Sequence record: MK573636
Reading direction: 5' to 3' (one strand)
DNA length: 64,000 nucleotides
Source: Escherichia phage vB_EcoM_PHB13
Shown here: positions 3,917-25,136 of the stretch, in pieces
How the letters are laid out: each line of letters starts with the position of its first letter
Position numbering within the stretch: position 1 is the stretch's first letter
Translations under genes and position numbers: made by a program
Notes under the pieces: generated by a model
The model's input: only the letters and a program-made list of their open reading frames with translations
What the model was told of the DNA's origin: nothing
Databases searched by the model: none

Positions 3917-4089
3917 TGGCTACTGTATGGTTATTGATTGCAATCAGCAATTCAATGTATAATTACGGAAATATGTCAAGCATTGAGTTTGCAACAAAGC
4001 AGGATTGCGTTAAAGCTCGCGAGGTTATCCGCGAAGACAATAAACGCTTTATGAATCTGTACTGTGTTGAAAAGCAGAAGGTGAACTAA
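3916..4089 (+). CDS. small hypothetical protein (57 aa), tandem paralog 1 (MATVWLL...)
   Basis: ORF below 60-aa track cutoff; N-terminus MATVWLLIA; SD GGATAA; paralogous to next ORF. Confidence 0.45.
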   Translation: MATVWLLIAISNSMYNYGNMSSIEFATKQDCVKAREVIREDNKRFMNLYCVEKQKVN

Positions 4090-20065: not shown

Positions 20066-20347
20066 ATGAAATTCATCAAAGCAACCGAAATCCTGAAAAA
20101 CAAAGAAGCATACATCGGAAACATCGTTGGTATGAACATTCGCGGCGCTGGTAGCCAGTGGACCAAACTGGTTGATGTTAAAGCTAAAGGCGATAAAATT
20201 GAGTTCACTGTAAAAATGCTTACTCATAACGCACATATGGGTATCAAGACAAAAACGATGGCAGCAGATAAAAGCATCAACTATCAGGATCTGGGTGATT
20301 GGCTGAACTGGTGCAAAATGCACAACATCGAAACTAATCACGAATAA
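20066..20347 (+). CDS. hypothetical early protein (93 aa)
   Basis: ORF after PeSL SD. Confidence 0.5.
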   Translation: MKFIKATEILKNKEAYIGNIVGMNIRGAGSQWTKLVDVKAKGDKIEFTVKMLTHNAHMGIKTKTMAADKSINYQDLGDWLNWCKMHNIETNHE

Positions 20348-20361
20348 TTTTAAAAAAGTTG

Positions 20362-20390
20362 TTGACGGGGATCGGGAGATCCCCTATAAT
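20362..20390 (+). promoter_or_regulatory. PeSL early promoter TTGACG-GGGATCGGGAGATCCCC-TATAAT
   Basis: Direct reading. Confidence 0.65.
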
Positions 20391-20423
20391 ACACACATAC
20401 CGAAACGAAATAGGAGAATCAAA

Positions 20424-20591
20424 ATGTTCGAGACTAAAGCAGCATGTGAAGCATATATCATTGAAACCCACGGCGAAGATTATCTGAAATTTGACATTGT
20501 AGTAGCACAGAAGATTGTAGGGATGGTTGCGAAATACCTCGGAGTTAAAGAAGGTTACTATCCAAGCAACGCACCGGAAATTAACAAATAA
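20424..20591 (+). CDS. small protein (55 aa), duplicate copy 2 (MFETKAACEAY...)
   Basis: ~85% nt identity by eye to 17166-17333; identical C-terminus GVKEGYYPSNAPEINK. Confidence 0.5.
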   Translation: MFETKAACEAYIIETHGEDYLKFDIVVAQKIVGMVAKYLGVKEGYYPSNAPEINK

Positions 20592-20606
20592 TTTTTATAA
20601 AAAGTG

Positions 20607-20635
20607 TTGACAGGGGAGACACCCTCCCCTATAAT
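20607..20635 (+). promoter_or_regulatory. PeSL early promoter TTGACA-GGGGAGACACCCTCCCC-TATAAT driving the 20676-22731 operon
   Basis: Direct reading. Confidence 0.65.
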
Positions 20636-20675
20636 ACAACCATCAAGACGAGATACCACTTAGGAGAATCAAACA

Positions 20676-20927
20676 ATGGCTAACATCGAAACCGCAAAGA
20701 AAATCGCTAAAGACCTGAACGTTAAAGGCTTCCGTAAACTGAAATTACAGCGTGTACGCTACACCATCGGCAAACAGTGCTCTTTCATGAGCGAAGAAGT
20801 TGCTAACAGCCTCATTGATAACCTGATTGCGGCTGGCTGGGAAGTTGCGGATCTGAAAACTTGCCGCGAACTGGCTAACAAAGGTCTTTTAGATTCTGTT
20901 ACTATAAAACCAATGGGGGCAGCGTGA
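20676..20927 (+). CDS. hypothetical protein (83 aa), first gene of operon
   Basis: ORF after PeSL SD; stop overlaps next start. Confidence 0.5.
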   Translation: MANIETAKKIAKDLNVKGFRKLKLQRVRYTIGKQCSFMSEEVANSLIDNLIAAGWEVADLKTCRELANKGLLDSVTIKPMGAA

Positions 20928-21169
20928 AAAGAAAATTAATTAAACGAAATAAGGAATTTTTGAATAACTGCATTAAGGTTGCTAATGGTTGGCCTTTGTT
21001 CCTCTTCCTTTATGATTGGTATTCTAAACAATCGGTAGAGGAAACACGACACTATAAGAAGATCAGAAAAGAATCATATACAAAACAAGGCCGCATTAAC
21101 GGACTTTACTTAATGTGGCACGGCAAAGAACCTTCTAAAATCTGTGTTGGATTAAAGGGGCGTATATGA
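20924..21169 (+). CDS. hypothetical basic protein (81 aa)
   Basis: ATGA-coupled to neighbours. Confidence 0.45.
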   Translation: MKRKLIKRNKEFLNNCIKVANGWPLFLFLYDWYSKQSVEETRHYKKIRKESYTKQGRINGLYLMWHGKEPSKICVGLKGRI

Positions 21170-21882
21170 AACAAAAATTAATATTCTGCAACTTTGACGG
21201 ATCGGGGATAATGGGGCTAGAATGGGCTAAAGCAGGTCATAAGGTGATCTGCTTTAATGCAGATGATGCCGACCACGGCACATACAAAAAGTATAATACC
21301 CGATTTGAACATCCAAACATTACATATGTAAACACATGGATTGATTTGGATTGGCTGGAAAGAGCAATGGACCTTGAATGGGGAAAACCAGATATTATCT
21401 TTGCATTCCCACCGTGCACCAATTTAGCTGTTAGTGGCGCTGCACACTTTGAACGAAAGAAACGAGAACAAGGACCATTAATTCAAGTTCATGATGTAAG
21501 GGCAGCTAAAATAACCGCTTATTTGGGCGAATGGTTAGAAGTTCCCTACATGATAGAGAATCCTGTAAGCGTTATCTCTAGCATGTGGCGTAAGCCTGAT
21601 TACATGTTCCACCCGTGGGAATATGGCGGTTATTTGCCGGAATATGATATACATCCTACGTTTCCTGAGTATATTGCCTCCCGTGATATGTACCCGAAAA
21701 AGACTTGCTTATGGACGGGACAAGGTTTTATAATGCCAGAAAAGAAACCTATACCGATTAATAAAGGGTACAGTAAACAGCATTCTAAGCTAGGCGGGAA
21801 AGGAACCAGAACAAAGACTATCAGGTCACTTACCCCGCGAGGATTCGCAAAGGCAGTATTTGAAGCCAATAAGGATCTATGA
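21166..21882 (+). CDS. compact C5-cytosine methyltransferase-fold protein (variant motifs PCT / ENP)
   Basis: Motif I FDGSGIMG, motif IV FPPCTNLAVSG, motif VI ENPVSV, motif IX RSLTPRGFAKAV; only 238 aa. Confidence 0.55.
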   Translation: MKQKLIFCNFDGSGIMGLEWAKAGHKVICFNADDADHGTYKKYNTRFEHPNITYVNTWIDLDWLERAMDLEWGKPDIIFAFPPCTNLAVSGAAHFERKKREQGPLIQVHDVRAAKITAYLGEWLEVPYMIENPVSVISSMWRKPDYMFHPWEYGGYLPEYDIHPTFPEYIASRDMYPKKTCLWTGQGFIMPEKKPIPINKGYSKQHSKLGGKGTRTKTIRSLTPRGFAKAVFEANKDL

Positions 21883-22211
21883 TGGGATTGTTTAAGTATT
21901 CGCTAACGTCAAATTACGATAAACAAGGTCATTGCATCAGTTGCCCTGATTGTCGTAGCCATAACATCGAAAGCAAGATCACCGATCATATTGATGGACT
22001 TTGGTCGCCAGCAAGCGAGATAGAATACTATTGCGCTGATTGTGGAATTGTAGTAGCATATTGGGCATACGGATCATATGATCCTTACTTCCAGATGGGA
22101 GAGCGTTCAATCCCTGCTCTTATCTGGAGAATTAAGAACAATATCCGCCATTCATGGGATGAGTTCTTAAAAGATATTGATTTACGTGATGATCCATTCA
22201 GGAGACTATAA
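21879..22211 (+). CDS. zinc-ribbon protein (two CxxC pairs)
   Basis: CISCPDC and CADCG cysteine pairs; coupled to flanking genes. Confidence 0.45.
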   Translation: MMGLFKYSLTSNYDKQGHCISCPDCRSHNIESKITDHIDGLWSPASEIEYYCADCGIVVAYWAYGSYDPYFQMGERSIPALIWRIKNNIRHSWDEFLKDIDLRDDPFRRL

Positions 22212-22212
22212 C

Positions 22213-22731
22213 ATGAACCGTTTGACGCCTAAACGCCGTTACTATACCAATACTAAAAACTTTGTCATCTCTGTTTATGAGGCGTGGTTAGAAGATGGCT
22301 ATATCAACATGAACCCAGATTACCAGCGTCCTTTGGTATGGGACACCGAAAACAAACGTATGTTTATCGAAAACCTGATTAATGATTTTCCGGTTGGTGC
22401 TATCGCAATGGCTAAGATTGATGATGGCTCTCGCTATGAGATCGAAATCGTGGACGGTAAACAGCGTTTAAACGCAATATTCTCCTTTATGAAAGATGAG
22501 TTTAGCATTGCTGGTAATGATGATTCTATGTTGTATTACAGTGATTTTACGCCAGCAGAAAAGCGACGTTTTCGCAATCTCGGACTACCCGCGATCATGA
22601 TGGAAGAGAGCACACGAGAAGATCGATTAGAATATTTCTACAAAACAAACTTTTTCGGTGTGCCTCAATCAGAAGATCATCGCCAGCATGTGATTGCATT
22701 ATTGCAAGATGAGCAATTAAAAAATAACTAA
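22213..22731 (+). CDS. DUF262 / ParB-like (DGQQR-motif) domain protein
   Basis: DYQRPLVWD and DGKQRL motifs; start placed at ATG after SD GGAGA (track 22177). Confidence 0.5.
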   Translation: MNRLTPKRRYYTNTKNFVISVYEAWLEDGYINMNPDYQRPLVWDTENKRMFIENLINDFPVGAIAMAKIDDGSRYEIEIVDGKQRLNAIFSFMKDEFSIAGNDDSMLYYSDFTPAEKRRFRNLGLPAIMMEESTREDRLEYFYKTNFFGVPQSEDHRQHVIALLQDEQLKNN

Positions 22732-22738
22732 AAAGTTG

Positions 22739-22768
22739 TTGACAGGGGGATCGGTGATCCCCTATAAT
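22739..22768 (+). promoter_or_regulatory. PeSL early promoter TTGACA-GGGGGATCGGTGATCCCC-TATAAT
   Basis: Direct reading. Confidence 0.65.
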
Positions 22769-22804
22769 GCAAACATACCGAAACGAACTACTAAGGAGTA
22801 TCAA

Positions 22805-23017
22805 ATGGCTAACATCGAAATCATCATTACCGACGTAACTTATGACCGCATTAACGAAATCGGTACTGCTTTGCTAGAAGATGGAACAACTCGCACCATC
22901 AACTACGCAGAATACGTTGAAATGCGCGGTTGTATTAAACGAGTAGGAAAATATATCCTGATTGAAAAAGACTATTCAGGATACACATTAGAGCAATTGC
23001 TCGATGGTGCATTATAA
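22805..23017 (+). CDS. hypothetical early protein (70 aa)
   Basis: Start after PeSL SD; track start 22736 spans promoter and is rejected. Confidence 0.5.
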   Translation: MANIEIIITDVTYDRINEIGTALLEDGTTRTINYAEYVEMRGCIKRVGKYILIEKDYSGYTLEQLLDGAL

Positions 23018-23084: not shown

Positions 23085-25136
23085 ATGTTTAACTTAGAAA
23101 TCGACGATCTAATGATTGAATCTTTCGAGAAATGGCTGTTGACGGAAGAGGAAGAAAACTTTGGCAGTATTGCTCCGGTACAGTGCTTAAAGCCTAAGCA
23201 GAATCCTAAACAGCTTTTTGCAGTACAGACACGCGATAAAGATGTGATTGTCCGTCTTTGTAACTTCACCAACAAAACACCTAAAATCATTCGTATGGGT
23301 GACAAGACCGCACATGTTGTACTGTGCGAAATGAACAAAAGCGGTCGTATTGTACAGCTTAAAAATGGTCTAGGCGATAACCCGATTGCAGTTATGGCAA
23401 GTGCTTTTGATGTGGTTATGGAAACAGCCCGTAAAGCGCAATTAGACGCTGTTATGTTCCGTTTTAACGTATCCCGCATGAAAGGTAAGACCGAACTGGT
23501 TAAGCGCGTTATAGAGCGTTTGGTGCGTCGTACACCGAAGTTTGAAGTATTCCAGCAGGAAGTAATGACCAGCAAAAAGATCGCTTTAGTTGTTGTCAAG
23601 CGTCGAGGTATGGCGATTGATAAGATTAAAGGGATTAAACTTGATGAATCCTTGTTCACTAAAGTAGAAAGTGATTTAGGTGATCGCTGGGTATCTAAAG
23701 CTACTGGCGAATCTCTGACTAAAGATGAAGCATATGCGGCTAGTCTTGTGTCAGAAGAAGAACGAAACGCGGAAGCAGAACAACGCGTAGCGGCTAAATC
23801 TCGTTTGACTAAAGAAGAAATGCTGAAAACTCAAGCGACCTATAACAGCGACTATGTGAATCATCCAGAAAAAATTAATCTTAAACCGGAAGAAGATATC
23901 ACCGAAGCAGAACCTAAGAAACAGTTTAATACTCTGATTGACCGTCAAGCCTTAGAACGTTCAACCGCCCGTTCTCTGAATGACTGGACAAGTGATATTA
24001 TCACTCGCTATGGTTTCATGCGTACTATTTTTGAAAGCGAAGCCGATGCAAAATACGCAGTAAGCGAACTGGTAAAAGTTCAGGACCAATATGATCCGTT
24101 GTCTGCGGAAGTTATCGCAGCATCAATCAAACGCTTAAAAGAAATCATGAGCGAGGAAGTATTCGAAAACAAGATCACTGCGTTGGCAATGGATCGAGTA
24201 GACCAGTCTATGCCAGCAGATGTAAAAGCTGAAATGCTGCGTAGTCATATCACACAGATTAAAACCGATGCCCTTCGTAATGTTGCCTCCGGTATGTTTG
24301 AAGCAATTGCAAGTAACATGGGTGAAATGATGGCAGATATTGATCTTGACCTACCAGGCGCGGAAGGTTTTGTGTTGAGCGAATATGCGGATGCAGCATA
24401 CATCAATATGAACAACTTCCTAACCGATCGTAAGCTGGATGAGTTCGAAGGGATCGCTGACCCAGAAGAATTGGTCAAGATGTGCGACGCACTGGATAAT
24501 GCCTTCGCTAACTATGGCGTTAAACTTGATCCGGGTACTATTCTGTATCGTGGTATGGACTTCCGGTCTCAAATGTGGGAAACTGCACGTAAGCAAAAAG
24601 CGTTTTACTTTAAAAACTATGTGAGCACTTCCCTTGCACCTAACATTTTTGGCGGCTGGAATGCAAACGTGGCTAGTGCCGTTGCTGGTGTTGATTCTAT
24701 GGCTGGCTCTCGCGGTGAAGGTGGCGCGAATGTTGCTTTCTCCATTGCTGGCGCGGAAAACATCCCTGTATTGCCAGTAGGTAACAAAGCATTTGCTTAC
24801 AAAGAATGCGAGATTTTACTTCCTCGCGGTGTTGTGTTATCCTTTGATACGGTAACTCGTGCTACGGCATCGACGGATTCACAAGAAACATATTACATTG
24901 AGGCACATATTATGAACAAAAGTGAACTGGCAGCATTACAAGAATCTGGCGAAATGATCGCGGATGGTGATGCATTCATCCGTGAAGGTGTTGTTAAACC
25001 TGCTTCTGACCTGTCTTTCTCCAGATTCATTACAGAAGCTAAAACCGAACGTAAGAAAGCAGATAAGGCAACTCTACGTCAGCTTATCGCTGATCTGGTG
25101 TCTGTAGACGCAATGCCAGATAAATTTAAAATGTAA
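23085..25136 (+). CDS. alt: Alt-like ADP-ribosyltransferase (virion-packaged in T4)
   Basis: 683 aa; matches to T4 Alt (FTKVESDLGD, FYFKNYVSTSLAPNIFGGW) and R-S-E ART triad (YRG, STS, ECEILLPRG). Confidence 0.8.
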   Translation: MFNLEIDDLMIESFEKWLLTEEEENFGSIAPVQCLKPKQNPKQLFAVQTRDKDVIVRLCNFTNKTPKIIRMGDKTAHVVLCEMNKSGRIVQLKNGLGDNPIAVMASAFDVVMETARKAQLDAVMFRFNVSRMKGKTELVKRVIERLVRRTPKFEVFQQEVMTSKKIALVVVKRRGMAIDKIKGIKLDESLFTKVESDLGDRWVSKATGESLTKDEAYAASLVSEEERNAEAEQRVAAKSRLTKEEMLKTQATYNSDYVNHPEKINLKPEEDITEAEPKKQFNTLIDRQALERSTARSLNDWTSDIITRYGFMRTIFESEADAKYAVSELVKVQDQYDPLSAEVIAASIKRLKEIMSEEVFENKITALAMDRVDQSMPADVKAEMLRSHITQIKTDALRNVASGMFEAIASNMGEMMADIDLDLPGAEGFVLSEYADAAYINMNNFLTDRKLDEFEGIADPEELVKMCDALDNAFANYGVKLDPGTILYRGMDFRSQMWETARKQKAFYFKNYVSTSLAPNIFGGWNANVASAVAGVDSMAGSRGEGGANVAFSIAGAENIPVLPVGNKAFAYKECEILLPRGVVLSFDTVTRATASTDSQETYYIEAHIMNKSELAALQESGEMIADGDAFIREGVVKPASDLSFSRFITEAKTERKKADKATLRQLIADLVSVDAMPDKFKM

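Follow-up and report, generated by a model that had tools for sequence, protein, structure and literature searches.

The Cassette and Its Regulatory Elements

The locus described here lies within a 64,000-nucleotide stretch of DNA from Escherichia phage vB_EcoM_PHB13 (GenBank MK573636), referred to below as the window. Positions 20,607 to 22,768 are a single early cassette bounded by two PeSLs (promoter plus stem-loop), located in a hyperplastic region of this RB49-like (Krischvirus) T4-type phage. Five genes and the two regulatory elements make up this segment (Table 1).

Table 1. Features of the PeSL-bounded cassette (window coordinates).
Feature	Position	Strand	Description
PeSL early promoter	20607..20635	+	TTGACA, 17-nt spacer with hairpin GGGGAG-ACACC-CTCCCC, TATAAT
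ORF1, 83 aa	20676..20927	+	RB49p190; phrog_14908, E 5e-59; GGAG Shine-Dalgarno upstream
ORF2, 81 aa	20924..21169	+	GTG start; RB49p189.1; phrog_7065, E 6.8e-38
Compact orphan DNA cytosine-C5 methyltransferase (supported), 238 aa	21166..21882	+	RB49p189; phage Dcm-like family
Cysteine-rich Zn-ribbon protein, 110 aa	21879..22211	+	RB49p188; phrog_2993, E 2e-32
Stand-alone DUF262 / GmrSD_N (ParB/Srx-fold) protein, 172 aa	22213..22731	+	RB49p187; phrog_1583
Next PeSL (promoter and hairpin)	22739..22768	+	12/12 consensus, 18-nt spacer; closes this cassette and starts the following one

The opening promoter matches the sigma-70 consensus at 12 of 12 positions and carries a 7-bp hairpin in its spacer (-6.9 kcal/mol, z -3.8), while the hairpin of the closing PeSL is also 7 bp long (-6.4 kcal/mol). 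Stop and start codons overlap at 20,924 (GTGA), 21,166 (ATGA), and 21,879 (ATGA), and a single nucleotide at 22,212 separates the Zn-ribbon gene from the DUF262 gene. For the latter, the start was placed at the ATG at 22,213, which has an AGGAG Shine-Dalgarno sequence; the mechanically called ORF begins at a TTG at 22,177. These features agree with the original prediction, made from the sequence alone, that five translationally coupled ORFs with these junctions follow one PeSL-driven early promoter at 20,607, and the transcription unit ends at the PeSL at 22,739. The window contains 17 near-consensus promoters where 2.6 would be expected, with 16 lying on the plus strand. An Rfam scan of the whole window found no RNA families.

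PeSLs were described in phages RB49 and phi1 as strong promoters and terminators that flank mobile cassettes (Arbiol et al., 2010, PMC2839356). The locus studied here has each element of that definition, namely a promoter with a stem-loop, then a Shine-Dalgarno sequence and a start codon, flanking a small gene set (PMC2839356). The cassettes in the hyperplastic regions of RB49 and phi1 (PMC2839356; Comeau et al., 2014, PMC4122927) likewise have a consensus sigma-70 promoter with a G/C hairpin in its spacer, followed by a Shine-Dalgarno sequence and start codon, and flank small sets of non-essential genes. We found no material difference between them and the segment from 20,607 to 22,768, which is one of them; the published example is in fact the neighboring ORF192 cassette (PMC2839356).

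At least 55 Krischvirus records contain the five-gene block at 96 to 97% identity, and it matches RB49p190 to RB49p187. Across Krischvirus genomes, purifying selection acts on each of the five genes, with pN/pS values of 0.16 for the methyltransferase, 0.02–0.06 for the DUF262 gene, 0.13–0.32 for the Zn-ribbon gene, and 0–0.31 for the two small ORFs (0–0.1 for ORF1). Four of the five cassette proteins have no NCBIfam model, and the product of the fourth gene, the Zn-ribbon protein, has sub-threshold Zn-ribbon matches only. ORF1 showed a weak PADLOC match to the C-terminal part of RT_UG35 (E 2.6e-5). ORF2 is absent from a Krischvirus-like contig (L018), in which the ORF1 stop codon abuts the methyltransferase start. 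The cassette is real and conserved, yet mostly already known as RB49p190 to RB49p187, PeSL cassettes having been described in 2010. Since RB49p189 is named "DNA methyltransferase" in the RefSeq genome of RB49 and its family has a characterized member, the cassette matters little as a discovery.

A Compact Member of a Large Phage Methyltransferase Family

The 238-aa protein is matched over its full length (residues 1–237) by the phrog_757 profile (E 1.6e-90) and contains the complete signature of that family (PPCT, ENP, WRKP, KKT, and RSxTPRG). This family comprises 7,183 clusters, with 2,025 representatives at E ≤ 1e-3 that are mostly 210 to 260 aa long, and was found in 1,519 phage records, roughly 3% of those searched. 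In the protein itself, we located motif I (FDGSG, residues 10–14), the catalytic Cys84 in FPPCT, Glu131 in ENP, Lys178/Lys179, and RSLTPRG (220–226). All the motifs quoted in the original prediction are thus present, including FDGSG, FPPCT, ENP, and RSLTPR here, and DYQRP and DGKQRL in the DUF262 protein. FPPCT aligns with the Pro-Cys of E. coli Dcm, placing the catalytic cysteine in motif IV. In the family alignment, whose members are 27 to 55% identical to the 238-aa protein, C84, E131, and P133 are invariant (Cys84 in 40 diverse members), and N132 is at least 90% conserved, so that motif VI reads Glu-Asn-x with an invariant Pro, not Val, as its third residue. PCT and ENP, initially taken for variants of the usual motifs, are in fact signature residues that do not vary across a family of thousands of proteins already annotated as DNA methyltransferase. 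The protein does depart from two family near-invariants, with N in place of D86 and G in place of S213.

More distant comparisons gave partial matches. In the Pfam check suggested with the original prediction, PF00145 matched only over residues 10–100, with an E-value of 0.034 and 14.0 bits, below the curated cut-off of 22 bits. The same model matched 14 of 27 family members at E ≤ 0.1, the best at 1.3e-6. Searching PDB chains with the single sequence returned nothing relevant, whereas the family profile matched M.HaeIII in motif I only (E 0.87), and hhalign of this profile against E. coli Dcm aligned motif IV only (E 0.21). The predicted structure has a class I SAM-methyltransferase fold with C5-methyltransferase topology. 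Two domain fusions occur in the family, one with a D12 Dam methyltransferase and one with HNH_2, which is consistent with a role in DNA modification and uninformative about partners.

The Rossmann core is common to the 238-aa protein and the classical C5-methyltransferases of PF00145 (M.HhaI, M.HaeIII, E. coli Dcm, DNMT3A/B), as are the FxGxG, Pro-Cys, and E-N-x motifs, which occur in identical order. However, the phage protein is approximately 100 to 250 residues shorter, has almost no target-recognition domain, reads PCT for PCQ and ENP for ENV, and lacks a canonical GNxVP motif X. In DNMT3, motif IV is PCN. Only about 35 residues (186–219) lie between motifs VIII and IX, from the KKTCLWTG strand to RSLTPRG, and this stretch is not a variable target-recognition domain, being largely conserved with two loop subtypes in the family. 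The family assignment, the predicted fold, the invariant Cys and Glu, and the activity of a 55%-identical homolog together support the original proposal that this protein is a compact C5-cytosine methyltransferase.

A Homolog With Demonstrated Activity

That homolog is bas06_0055 of phage KarlJaspers (Drexlerviridae), a 236-aa member of the same phrog_757 family that aligns with the 238-aa protein over its full length (55% identity, E 5e-89). Phage K42 is a strain of KarlJaspers, their genomes being 95.4% identical, and its Dcm is a trigger of retron Ec86. According to a preprint, expression of K42 Dcm leads to more 5mC in the msDNA of this retron, as measured by LC-MS, and triggers the retron, while a C82A/E128A/K175A/K176A mutant has neither effect (bioRxiv 10.1101/2023.08.16.553469). 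In that study, the CCWGG specificity of the enzyme was an assumption drawn from E. coli Dcm and msDNA mutants rather than a mapped result (bioRxiv 10.1101/2023.08.16.553469). The four mutated residues align with C84, E131, K178, and K179 of the Krischvirus protein, an identical catalytic constellation, and both proteins are DNMT3-like in predicted structure. They differ in the loop subtype between motifs VIII and IX (DNPGW in KarlJaspers, GYSKQH in the 238-aa protein) and in their genomic setting, as KarlJaspers does not avoid CCWGG and the Krischvirus phage does.

By analogy with this homolog, we infer that the Krischvirus enzyme is active. It is a DNMT3-like orphan, almost devoid of a target-recognition domain, whose early synthesis would be driven by a strong sigma-70 promoter. 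SAM would be bound at the FDGSG loop, Cys84 of PPCT would attack C6 of a flipped-out cytosine, and Glu131 of ENP together with Lys178/Lys179 would hold and activate the base while the methyl group is passed to C5. The enzyme probably methylates replicating phage DNA, and other DNA incidentally, at sparse, specific sequences, and the resulting 5mC would lessen restriction by type II enzymes.

Target Sites and DNA Modification in Krischvirus

CCWGG is strongly avoided in the window, with 22 sites observed against 78 expected (O/E 0.28), whereas five other phages carrying a methyltransferase of this family do not avoid it (O/E 0.83–1.04). This contrast makes self-protection at CCWGG doubtful in Krischvirus. 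In the same phage set, avoidance of GATC goes with the lack of a Dam-like gene, and the site-avoidance statistic is therefore informative. It suggests that the Dcm-like family protects CCWGG in siphophages and does not in Krischvirus.

One reading of these counts, to which we give a rather low probability, is that the methyltransferase is active without being a self-protective mimic of Dcm: it would recognize another or very rare target, or act on host, single-stranded or hairpin, or competitor DNA, and the phage would evade restriction chiefly through site avoidance. The depletion of CCWGG here and not in the other five carriers fits this reading, as does the absence from the window of 22 of the 64 six-base palindromes. 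Published Krischvirus DNA also appears essentially unmodified: no modified nucleosides were detectable by HPLC-MS in TB34 DNA (PMC13390438), and RB49 DNA is cut by HpaII and NheI (PMC4041780). Moreover, the substrate reported for K42 Dcm is an msDNA hairpin, and RB49 is routinely grown on E. coli B, a lineage carrying retron Ec86, in which a CCTGG-methylating enzyme should therefore be costly. However, the gene is kept under purifying selection with all its catalytic residues, and the short loop that joins motifs VIII and IX in the protein (GYSKQHSKLGGK) nearly matches that of phage JLBYU37, in which CCWGG is not avoided. The depletion could also be older than the acquisition of the gene. Finally, methylation of the approximately 57 CCWGG sites per genome would convert only about 0.2% of the cytosines to 5mC, a level easily missed by HPLC. 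Our literature search found no paper on methylation in Krischvirus.

A 2026 paper on the Durham collection reports that the cytosines of Krischvirus SAP are fully modified (5-hydroxymethyl and glucosyl), with no known pathway genes. The cassette could in principle be the missing pathway, with the methyltransferase starting a post-replicative hypermodification, but we regard this as extremely improbable. Phage TB34, whose cytosines are canonical, has an identical five-gene block; locally, TB34 and SAP differ only by upstream indels in homopolymers and by an 80-bp tandem duplication located where the DUF262 gene ends and at the PeSL. The cassette encodes no dioxygenase or glycosyltransferase, and RB49 DNA is unmodified at its HpaII and NheI sites. 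Because the coding sequences of SAP and TB34 are identical, the cassette was rejected as an explanation of the difference in modification between these two phages.

Zn-Ribbon Protein and Distribution of the Cassette Genes

The 110-aa protein contains five cysteines (C19, C22, C25, C52, and C55) along with DHIDG and YWAYG motifs, and its Zn-ribbon matches in Pfam were all sub-threshold. It was not recognized as a Lar restriction-alleviation protein, the PF14354 match (E 0.66, 10.7 bits) being under the 28.6-bit cut-off. Homologs approximately 40% identical occur in Nonagvirus (phage 9g), where no methyltransferase or DUF262 gene adjoins them; the 9g homolog itself gave only sub-threshold zinc-finger matches.

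The five genes had been proposed to form a functional module, and comparative genomics lends this proposal no support, as each gene occurs elsewhere without the others. DUF262 and Zn-ribbon genes were absent nearby in all five non-Krischvirus contexts of the methyltransferase that were checked, among them those of three metagenomic homologs and of KarlJaspers. Conversely, an HMM scan found a methyltransferase within 6 kb of only 2 of 33 DUF262 loci, both in Krischvirus, and the DUF262 homologs of Slopekvirus and Pseudotevenvirus have no methyltransferase. In Slopekvirus, the gene that precedes DUF262 is not homologous to the Zn-ribbon gene. The gene that follows it there and in Pseudotevenvirus (phrog_10932, 304 aa) gave no Pfam or PADLOC match.

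This distribution weighs against the idea that the five genes constitute an integrated modification machine. Since the methyltransferase has almost no target-recognition domain, the Zn-ribbon protein, the ParB-like DNA-binding DUF262 protein, or both might supply target recognition or loading, an arrangement suggested by the tight translational coupling and by the shortness of the segment between motifs VIII and IX. There are also precedents: phage DNA-modifying enzymes with ParB-like partners are known, namely the ParB-dependent T-dioxygenases (PMC13229309), and one Salmonella prophage has a DUF262-only gene followed, 466 bp downstream, by a small gene of class-I methyltransferase type. However, K42 Dcm is functional by itself in E. 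coli (bioRxiv 10.1101/2023.08.16.553469), the contexts examined for this widespread family lack the cassette neighbors, the Nonagvirus Zn-ribbon and the Slopekvirus and Pseudotevenvirus DUF262 homologs do without a methyltransferase, and ORF2 is dispensable, as contig L018 illustrates. We thus consider such a machine quite improbable. The best overall explanation, and in our view a probable one, is a PeSL early cassette that combines an orphan phage Dcm-like C5-methyltransferase with four independently distributed early accessory genes. ORF1, ORF2, the Zn-ribbon gene, and the DUF262 gene would not encode obligatory subunits of the methylase, and would owe their place in its transcription unit to PeSL-mediated shuffling.

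A DUF262 Domain Without a Nuclease

The last gene of the cassette encodes a complete DUF262 (ParB/Srx-fold) domain without a nuclease, in accordance with the original prediction. PF03235 matches the 172-aa protein with an E-value of 4.4e-20, identifying the N-terminal DUF262 domain of GmrSD, and the YQR and DGKQR nucleotide-binding motifs are present and invariant in the family. The domain is complete and modeled with high confidence, with ParB-N and BrxU as its closest structural relatives. No DUF1524 or HNH (His-Me) nuclease domain and no GmrD-type partner was found among the five cassette products. As the protein ends at 172 aa, the cassette holds no nuclease, and a PeSL comes next, no GmrSD enzyme is encoded here. 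The PADLOC model for NsnA also matched the protein (E 1.3e-20), only over model positions 47–186 of 385, and no other cassette product matched a Menshen component in PADLOC; a Menshen (NsnABC) system was therefore discarded.

With the type IV enzymes GmrSD and BrxU, and with SspE, DndI, and NsnA of Menshen, the 172-aa protein shares the DUF262 domain of ParB/Srx fold at the N terminus, including the (F/Y)QR and DGxQR motifs. Unlike GmrSD, BrxU, and the other DUF262 defense proteins, the cassette protein has no DUF1524 or HNH domain and no partner nuclease gene, is only 172 aa long, and is phage-encoded and expressed early. DUF262-only proteins of approximately 170 aa form a separate family that is widespread in phages and prophages. 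Their genes are widespread in T4-like phages and also occur in the early regions of lambdoid prophages, where RecET, KilR, and xis-int are neighbors, and adjacent to genes for Lar-like Zn-ribbon proteins.

These settings are typical anti-defense neighborhoods, and raise the possibility that the lone DUF262 protein is a counter-defense factor that poisons or decoys host DUF262 proteins (GmrSD/BrxU, SspE, DndI, or NsnA of Menshen); the original prediction had suggested a possible decoy against host type IV systems. The structural closeness of the complete, confidently modeled domain to ParB-N and BrxU would fit such a role, as would the invariant YQR and DGKQR motifs and the very strong purifying selection on the gene. 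The function would be linked to the methyltransferase because 5mC makes the phage DNA a BrxU-like substrate, BrxU being known to cleave 5mC DNA (PMC13390438). Several observations argue against this reading, and we hold it to be unlikely. Krischvirus DNA appears unmodified, and type IV enzymes are therefore no obvious threat; most DUF262-only genes do not adjoin a C5-methyltransferase; and the retained nucleotide-binding residues suggest an enzymatic or switch function over that of a passive decoy. Our literature search found no paper on DUF262-only phage proteins, nor any experiment tying one to anti-defense. More broadly, there is a slim chance that these proteins represent an unrecognized class of early effectors in non-hmC T4-like phages and lambdoid prophages, neutralizing or hijacking GmrSD/BrxU, SspE, DndI, or NsnA of Menshen. 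If so, Krischvirus would pair a DUF262 effector with a C5-methylase whose product is a BrxU substrate. As a widespread and strongly constrained early family of phages and prophages, the nuclease-less DUF262 proteins are a reasonable target for anti-defense screens.

A conserved early cassette of Krischvirus genomes

A search of phage records with the region 20300-23000 matched 58 of them, 55 with at least 80% query coverage and 96-97% identity, all RB49-like T4-type coliphages of the genus Krischvirus. The RefSeq counterparts in RB49 are, in order, RB49p190, p189.1, p189 (named "DNA methyltransferase"), p188, and p187, and there too an Alt-like ADP-ribosyltransferase gene lies directly downstream. 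The cassette is real and conserved, and was correctly read in the original prediction as a C5-methyltransferase (MTase) with a lone DUF262 gene; it is also already annotated, and its MTase family already characterised. The five coupled plus-strand ORFs, with their GTGA/ATGA overlaps and 1-nt gap, and the single early promoter before them were confirmed from the sequence, and a purine-rich Shine-Dalgarno precedes each ORF. Selection among Krischvirus genomes is purifying for each of the five, with a pN/pS of 0.16 in the MTase gene, 0.02-0.06 in the DUF262 gene, 0.13-0.32 in the Zn-ribbon gene, and 0-0.31 in ORF1 and ORF2.

Features of the cassette and of the loci compared
Feature	Location	Remarks
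Perfect promoter	20607-20635	TTGACA-17 nt-TATAAT; opens the block
ORF1	20676-20927	83 aa
ORF2	20924-21169	
MTase	21166-21882	238 aa
Zn-ribbon protein	21879-22211	110 aa
DUF262 protein	22213-22731	172 aa
Second perfect promoter	22739-22768	closes the block
Alt-like ADP-ribosyltransferase	23085-25136	683 aa; PF03496, E = 5e-9; directly 3' of the cassette, as in RB49
Further promoters with spacer hairpin	3689, 15566, 15958, 17103, 20362	plus strand
Chimeric ORF1	L018 4600-4960	Krischvirus-like IMG/VR contig; 3' two-thirds of ORF1 fused to another 5' segment; the ORF1 stop, in GTGA, and a GTG start of the MTase overlap directly
phrog_10932 gene	L006 3504-4418; L007 3504-4463	Slopekvirus, Pseudotevenvirus; 304-319 aa; translationally coupled 3' of a DUF262-only gene
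DUF262-only gene loci	L016 6001-7455; L014 5768-6516	early regions of lambdoid prophages, with a 157-aa class-I MTase-like gene 466 bp downstream of a DUF262-only gene; 85-kb Citrobacter element
80-bp tandem duplication	L012 (SAP) 3919-3997 vs L011 (TB34) 3917	covers the last DUF262 codons and the following PeSL

Near-consensus promoters are abundant in the window (17 against 2.6 expected), and all but one lie on the plus strand. A G/C hairpin of 7 bp occupies the spacer of both promoters that bracket the block, and five others have it too. This plus-strand series of seven consists of promoter early stem-loop elements (PeSLs) as described for RB49 and phi1, which are strong promoters with stem-loops that end transcription from upstream and which border shuffled cassettes of non-essential genes; the published example, ORF192, directly adjoins the present block (PMC2839356). 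The opening ORFs of two consecutive PeSL cassettes share their first 16 nt, ATGGCTAACATCGAAA (MANIE...; 20676-20691 and 22805-22820), so that PeSL homology seems to reach into the first codons.

A compact C5-methyltransferase family

Curated C5-MTase models lend the 238-aa protein weak support at the sequence level. The expected match to PF00145 was found, but below the Pfam cut-off (E = 0.034; 14 bits against 22) and over motifs I-IV only; no NCBIfam model matched, and PDB sequence searches returned nothing useful. The protein belongs over its full length to phrog_757 ("DNA methyltransferase", E = 1.6e-90), and its AlphaFold model reached a pLDDT of 88.9, with the Foldseek search in agreement. 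The family comprises 7183 clusters at 90% identity and 2025 representatives at 50% identity (E ≤ 1e-3), and is present in 1519 of 50,697 phage records, among them Drexlerviridae, Webervirus, rV5-like phages, Dhillonvirus, and Jerseyvirus. Nearly all members are 210-260 aa long, and PF00145 was matched at E ≤ 0.1 in 14 of 27 (best, 1.3e-6).

The PCT and ENP motifs had been taken as variants. Since they are conserved across members 27-55% identical to this protein, they are a signature of the whole family and not peculiar to one gene; C84, E131, and P133 are invariant among those members, and conservation is 90% or higher at F81, P82, T85, N132, R142, K178, T180, R220, S221, T223, and G226. The protein itself departs from the near-invariant residues D86 (N) and S213 (G). 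With only about 35 residues from its motif VIII strand to RSLTPRG, it essentially lacks a target-recognition domain. Rare fusions occur among family representatives (P0260, P0268), one joining the compact C5-MTase to a D12-class N6-adenine MTase (563 aa) and one to an HNH_2 nuclease (348 aa).

A homologue in the BASEL phage KarlJaspers (bas06_0055, a 236-aa "Dcm-like C5 cytosine methyltransferase") is 55% identical over its full length (E = 5e-89). In a preprint on retron Ec86 using KarlJaspers strain K42 (genome 95.4% identical), four of four escape mutants mapped to the 711-bp MTase gene; expression of K42 Dcm raised 5mC in msDNA (LC-MS) and activated the retron, and a C82A/E128A/K175A/K176A mutant was inert (10.1101/2023.08.16.553469). 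The four mutated positions correspond to C84, E131, K178, and K179 in the present protein. The preprint authors also remarked on a DNMT3A-like predicted fold; the putative CCWGG specificity was carried over from E. coli Dcm, with msDNA mutants as its only support (10.1101/2023.08.16.553469).

Self-modification and restriction-site avoidance

Evidence that the Krischvirus MTase modifies its own phage DNA is mixed. RB49 DNA was cleaved by HpaII and NheI and taken as unmodified (PMC4041780), and no modified nucleosides were detectable by HPLC-MS in Krischvirus TB34 (PMC13390438); these data rule out dense or non-specific methylation and are compatible with sparse, site-specific methylation. Restriction sites are strongly avoided in the window by computed site statistics: it lacks 22 of the 64 six-base palindromes, including GAATTC (19 expected), AAGCTT (12.5), and CCGCGG (11). 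CCWGG occurs 22 times against 78 expected (O/E 0.28), GGCC and CCSGG are also depleted (0.38 and 0.44), and GGSCC is absent (8 expected), whereas GATC is not avoided (1.05). CCWGG is not avoided in five other phages carrying the MTase family (O/E 0.83-1.04), including JLBYU37, whose short motif VIII-IX loop is nearly as in the Krischvirus MTase. The statistic reflects protection, because GATC avoidance tracks the absence of a Dam-like gene in the same phages. The Krischvirus MTase therefore gives no CCWGG protection, was acquired after the depletion, or has another target.

A 2026 paper reported fully modified cytosines in Krischvirus SAP and canonical ones in TB34, at 99.96% identity and with no pathway known. 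SAP and TB34 do not differ in any of the five coding sequences of the cassette, and the cassette was rejected as the source of the modification. The only differences in this region are upstream single-base homopolymer indels and the 80-bp tandem duplication in SAP, which creates an additional annotated 38-aa ORF.

Probable independent origins of the cassette genes

The proposal that the cassette forms a functional modification or anti-restriction module is unsupported by the comparative evidence. No cassette partner genes were present around the MTase at the loci examined, namely those of KarlJaspers, JLBYU37, and three metagenomic contigs; conversely, the MTase lies within 6 kb at 2 of 33 DUF262 loci, both in Krischvirus. 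In contig L018, ORF2 is missing and ORF1 is chimeric, an arrangement that looks like recombination between similar GTGAAA/ATGAAA gene starts, and K42 Dcm works in E. coli without partners (10.1101/2023.08.16.553469). The parsimonious reading is that the PeSL cassette accreted independent early accessory genes.

The last protein matched PF03235 as expected (E = 4.4e-20), and the lone DUF262 reading held: neither the protein nor the rest of the cassette encodes a nuclease. Its YQR and DGKQR motifs recur unchanged in all 37 homologues compared. Truncation was ruled out as the origin of its short length, as the best 120 of 2181 clusters in a profile search were all 139-214 aa. Homologues of about 175 aa (35% identity) occur in Slopekvirus and Pseudotevenvirus genomes; the phrog_10932 gene coupled to them matched nothing in Pfam or PADLOC and is without a counterpart in the window cassette. 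The early regions of lambdoid prophages also carry DUF262-only genes, with RecET, KilR, and xis-int as neighbours and, in one prophage, a class-I MTase-like gene downstream (see table). In PADLOC the best match was Menshen NsnA (1.3e-20), with none of its Menshen partners in the cassette, and we found no paper on DUF262-only proteins of this kind.

The Zn-ribbon protein belongs to phrog_2993, with five conserved cysteines and DHIDG and YWAYG motifs. Homologues about 40% identical were restricted to Nonagvirus-type phages, where they lie among replication genes with neither MTase nor DUF262. Its match to Lar was insignificant (E = 0.66) and this identity was not supported. The DUF262 gene of an 85-kb Citrobacter element has a translationally coupled Zn-ribbon gene (78 aa) on its upstream side. 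ORF1 and ORF2 are members of phage-only families, and a weak hit for ORF1 in PADLOC (E = 2.6e-5) falls in the C-terminal part of a UG35 defence reverse transcriptase, at positions 722-785 of the 938 in the profile.
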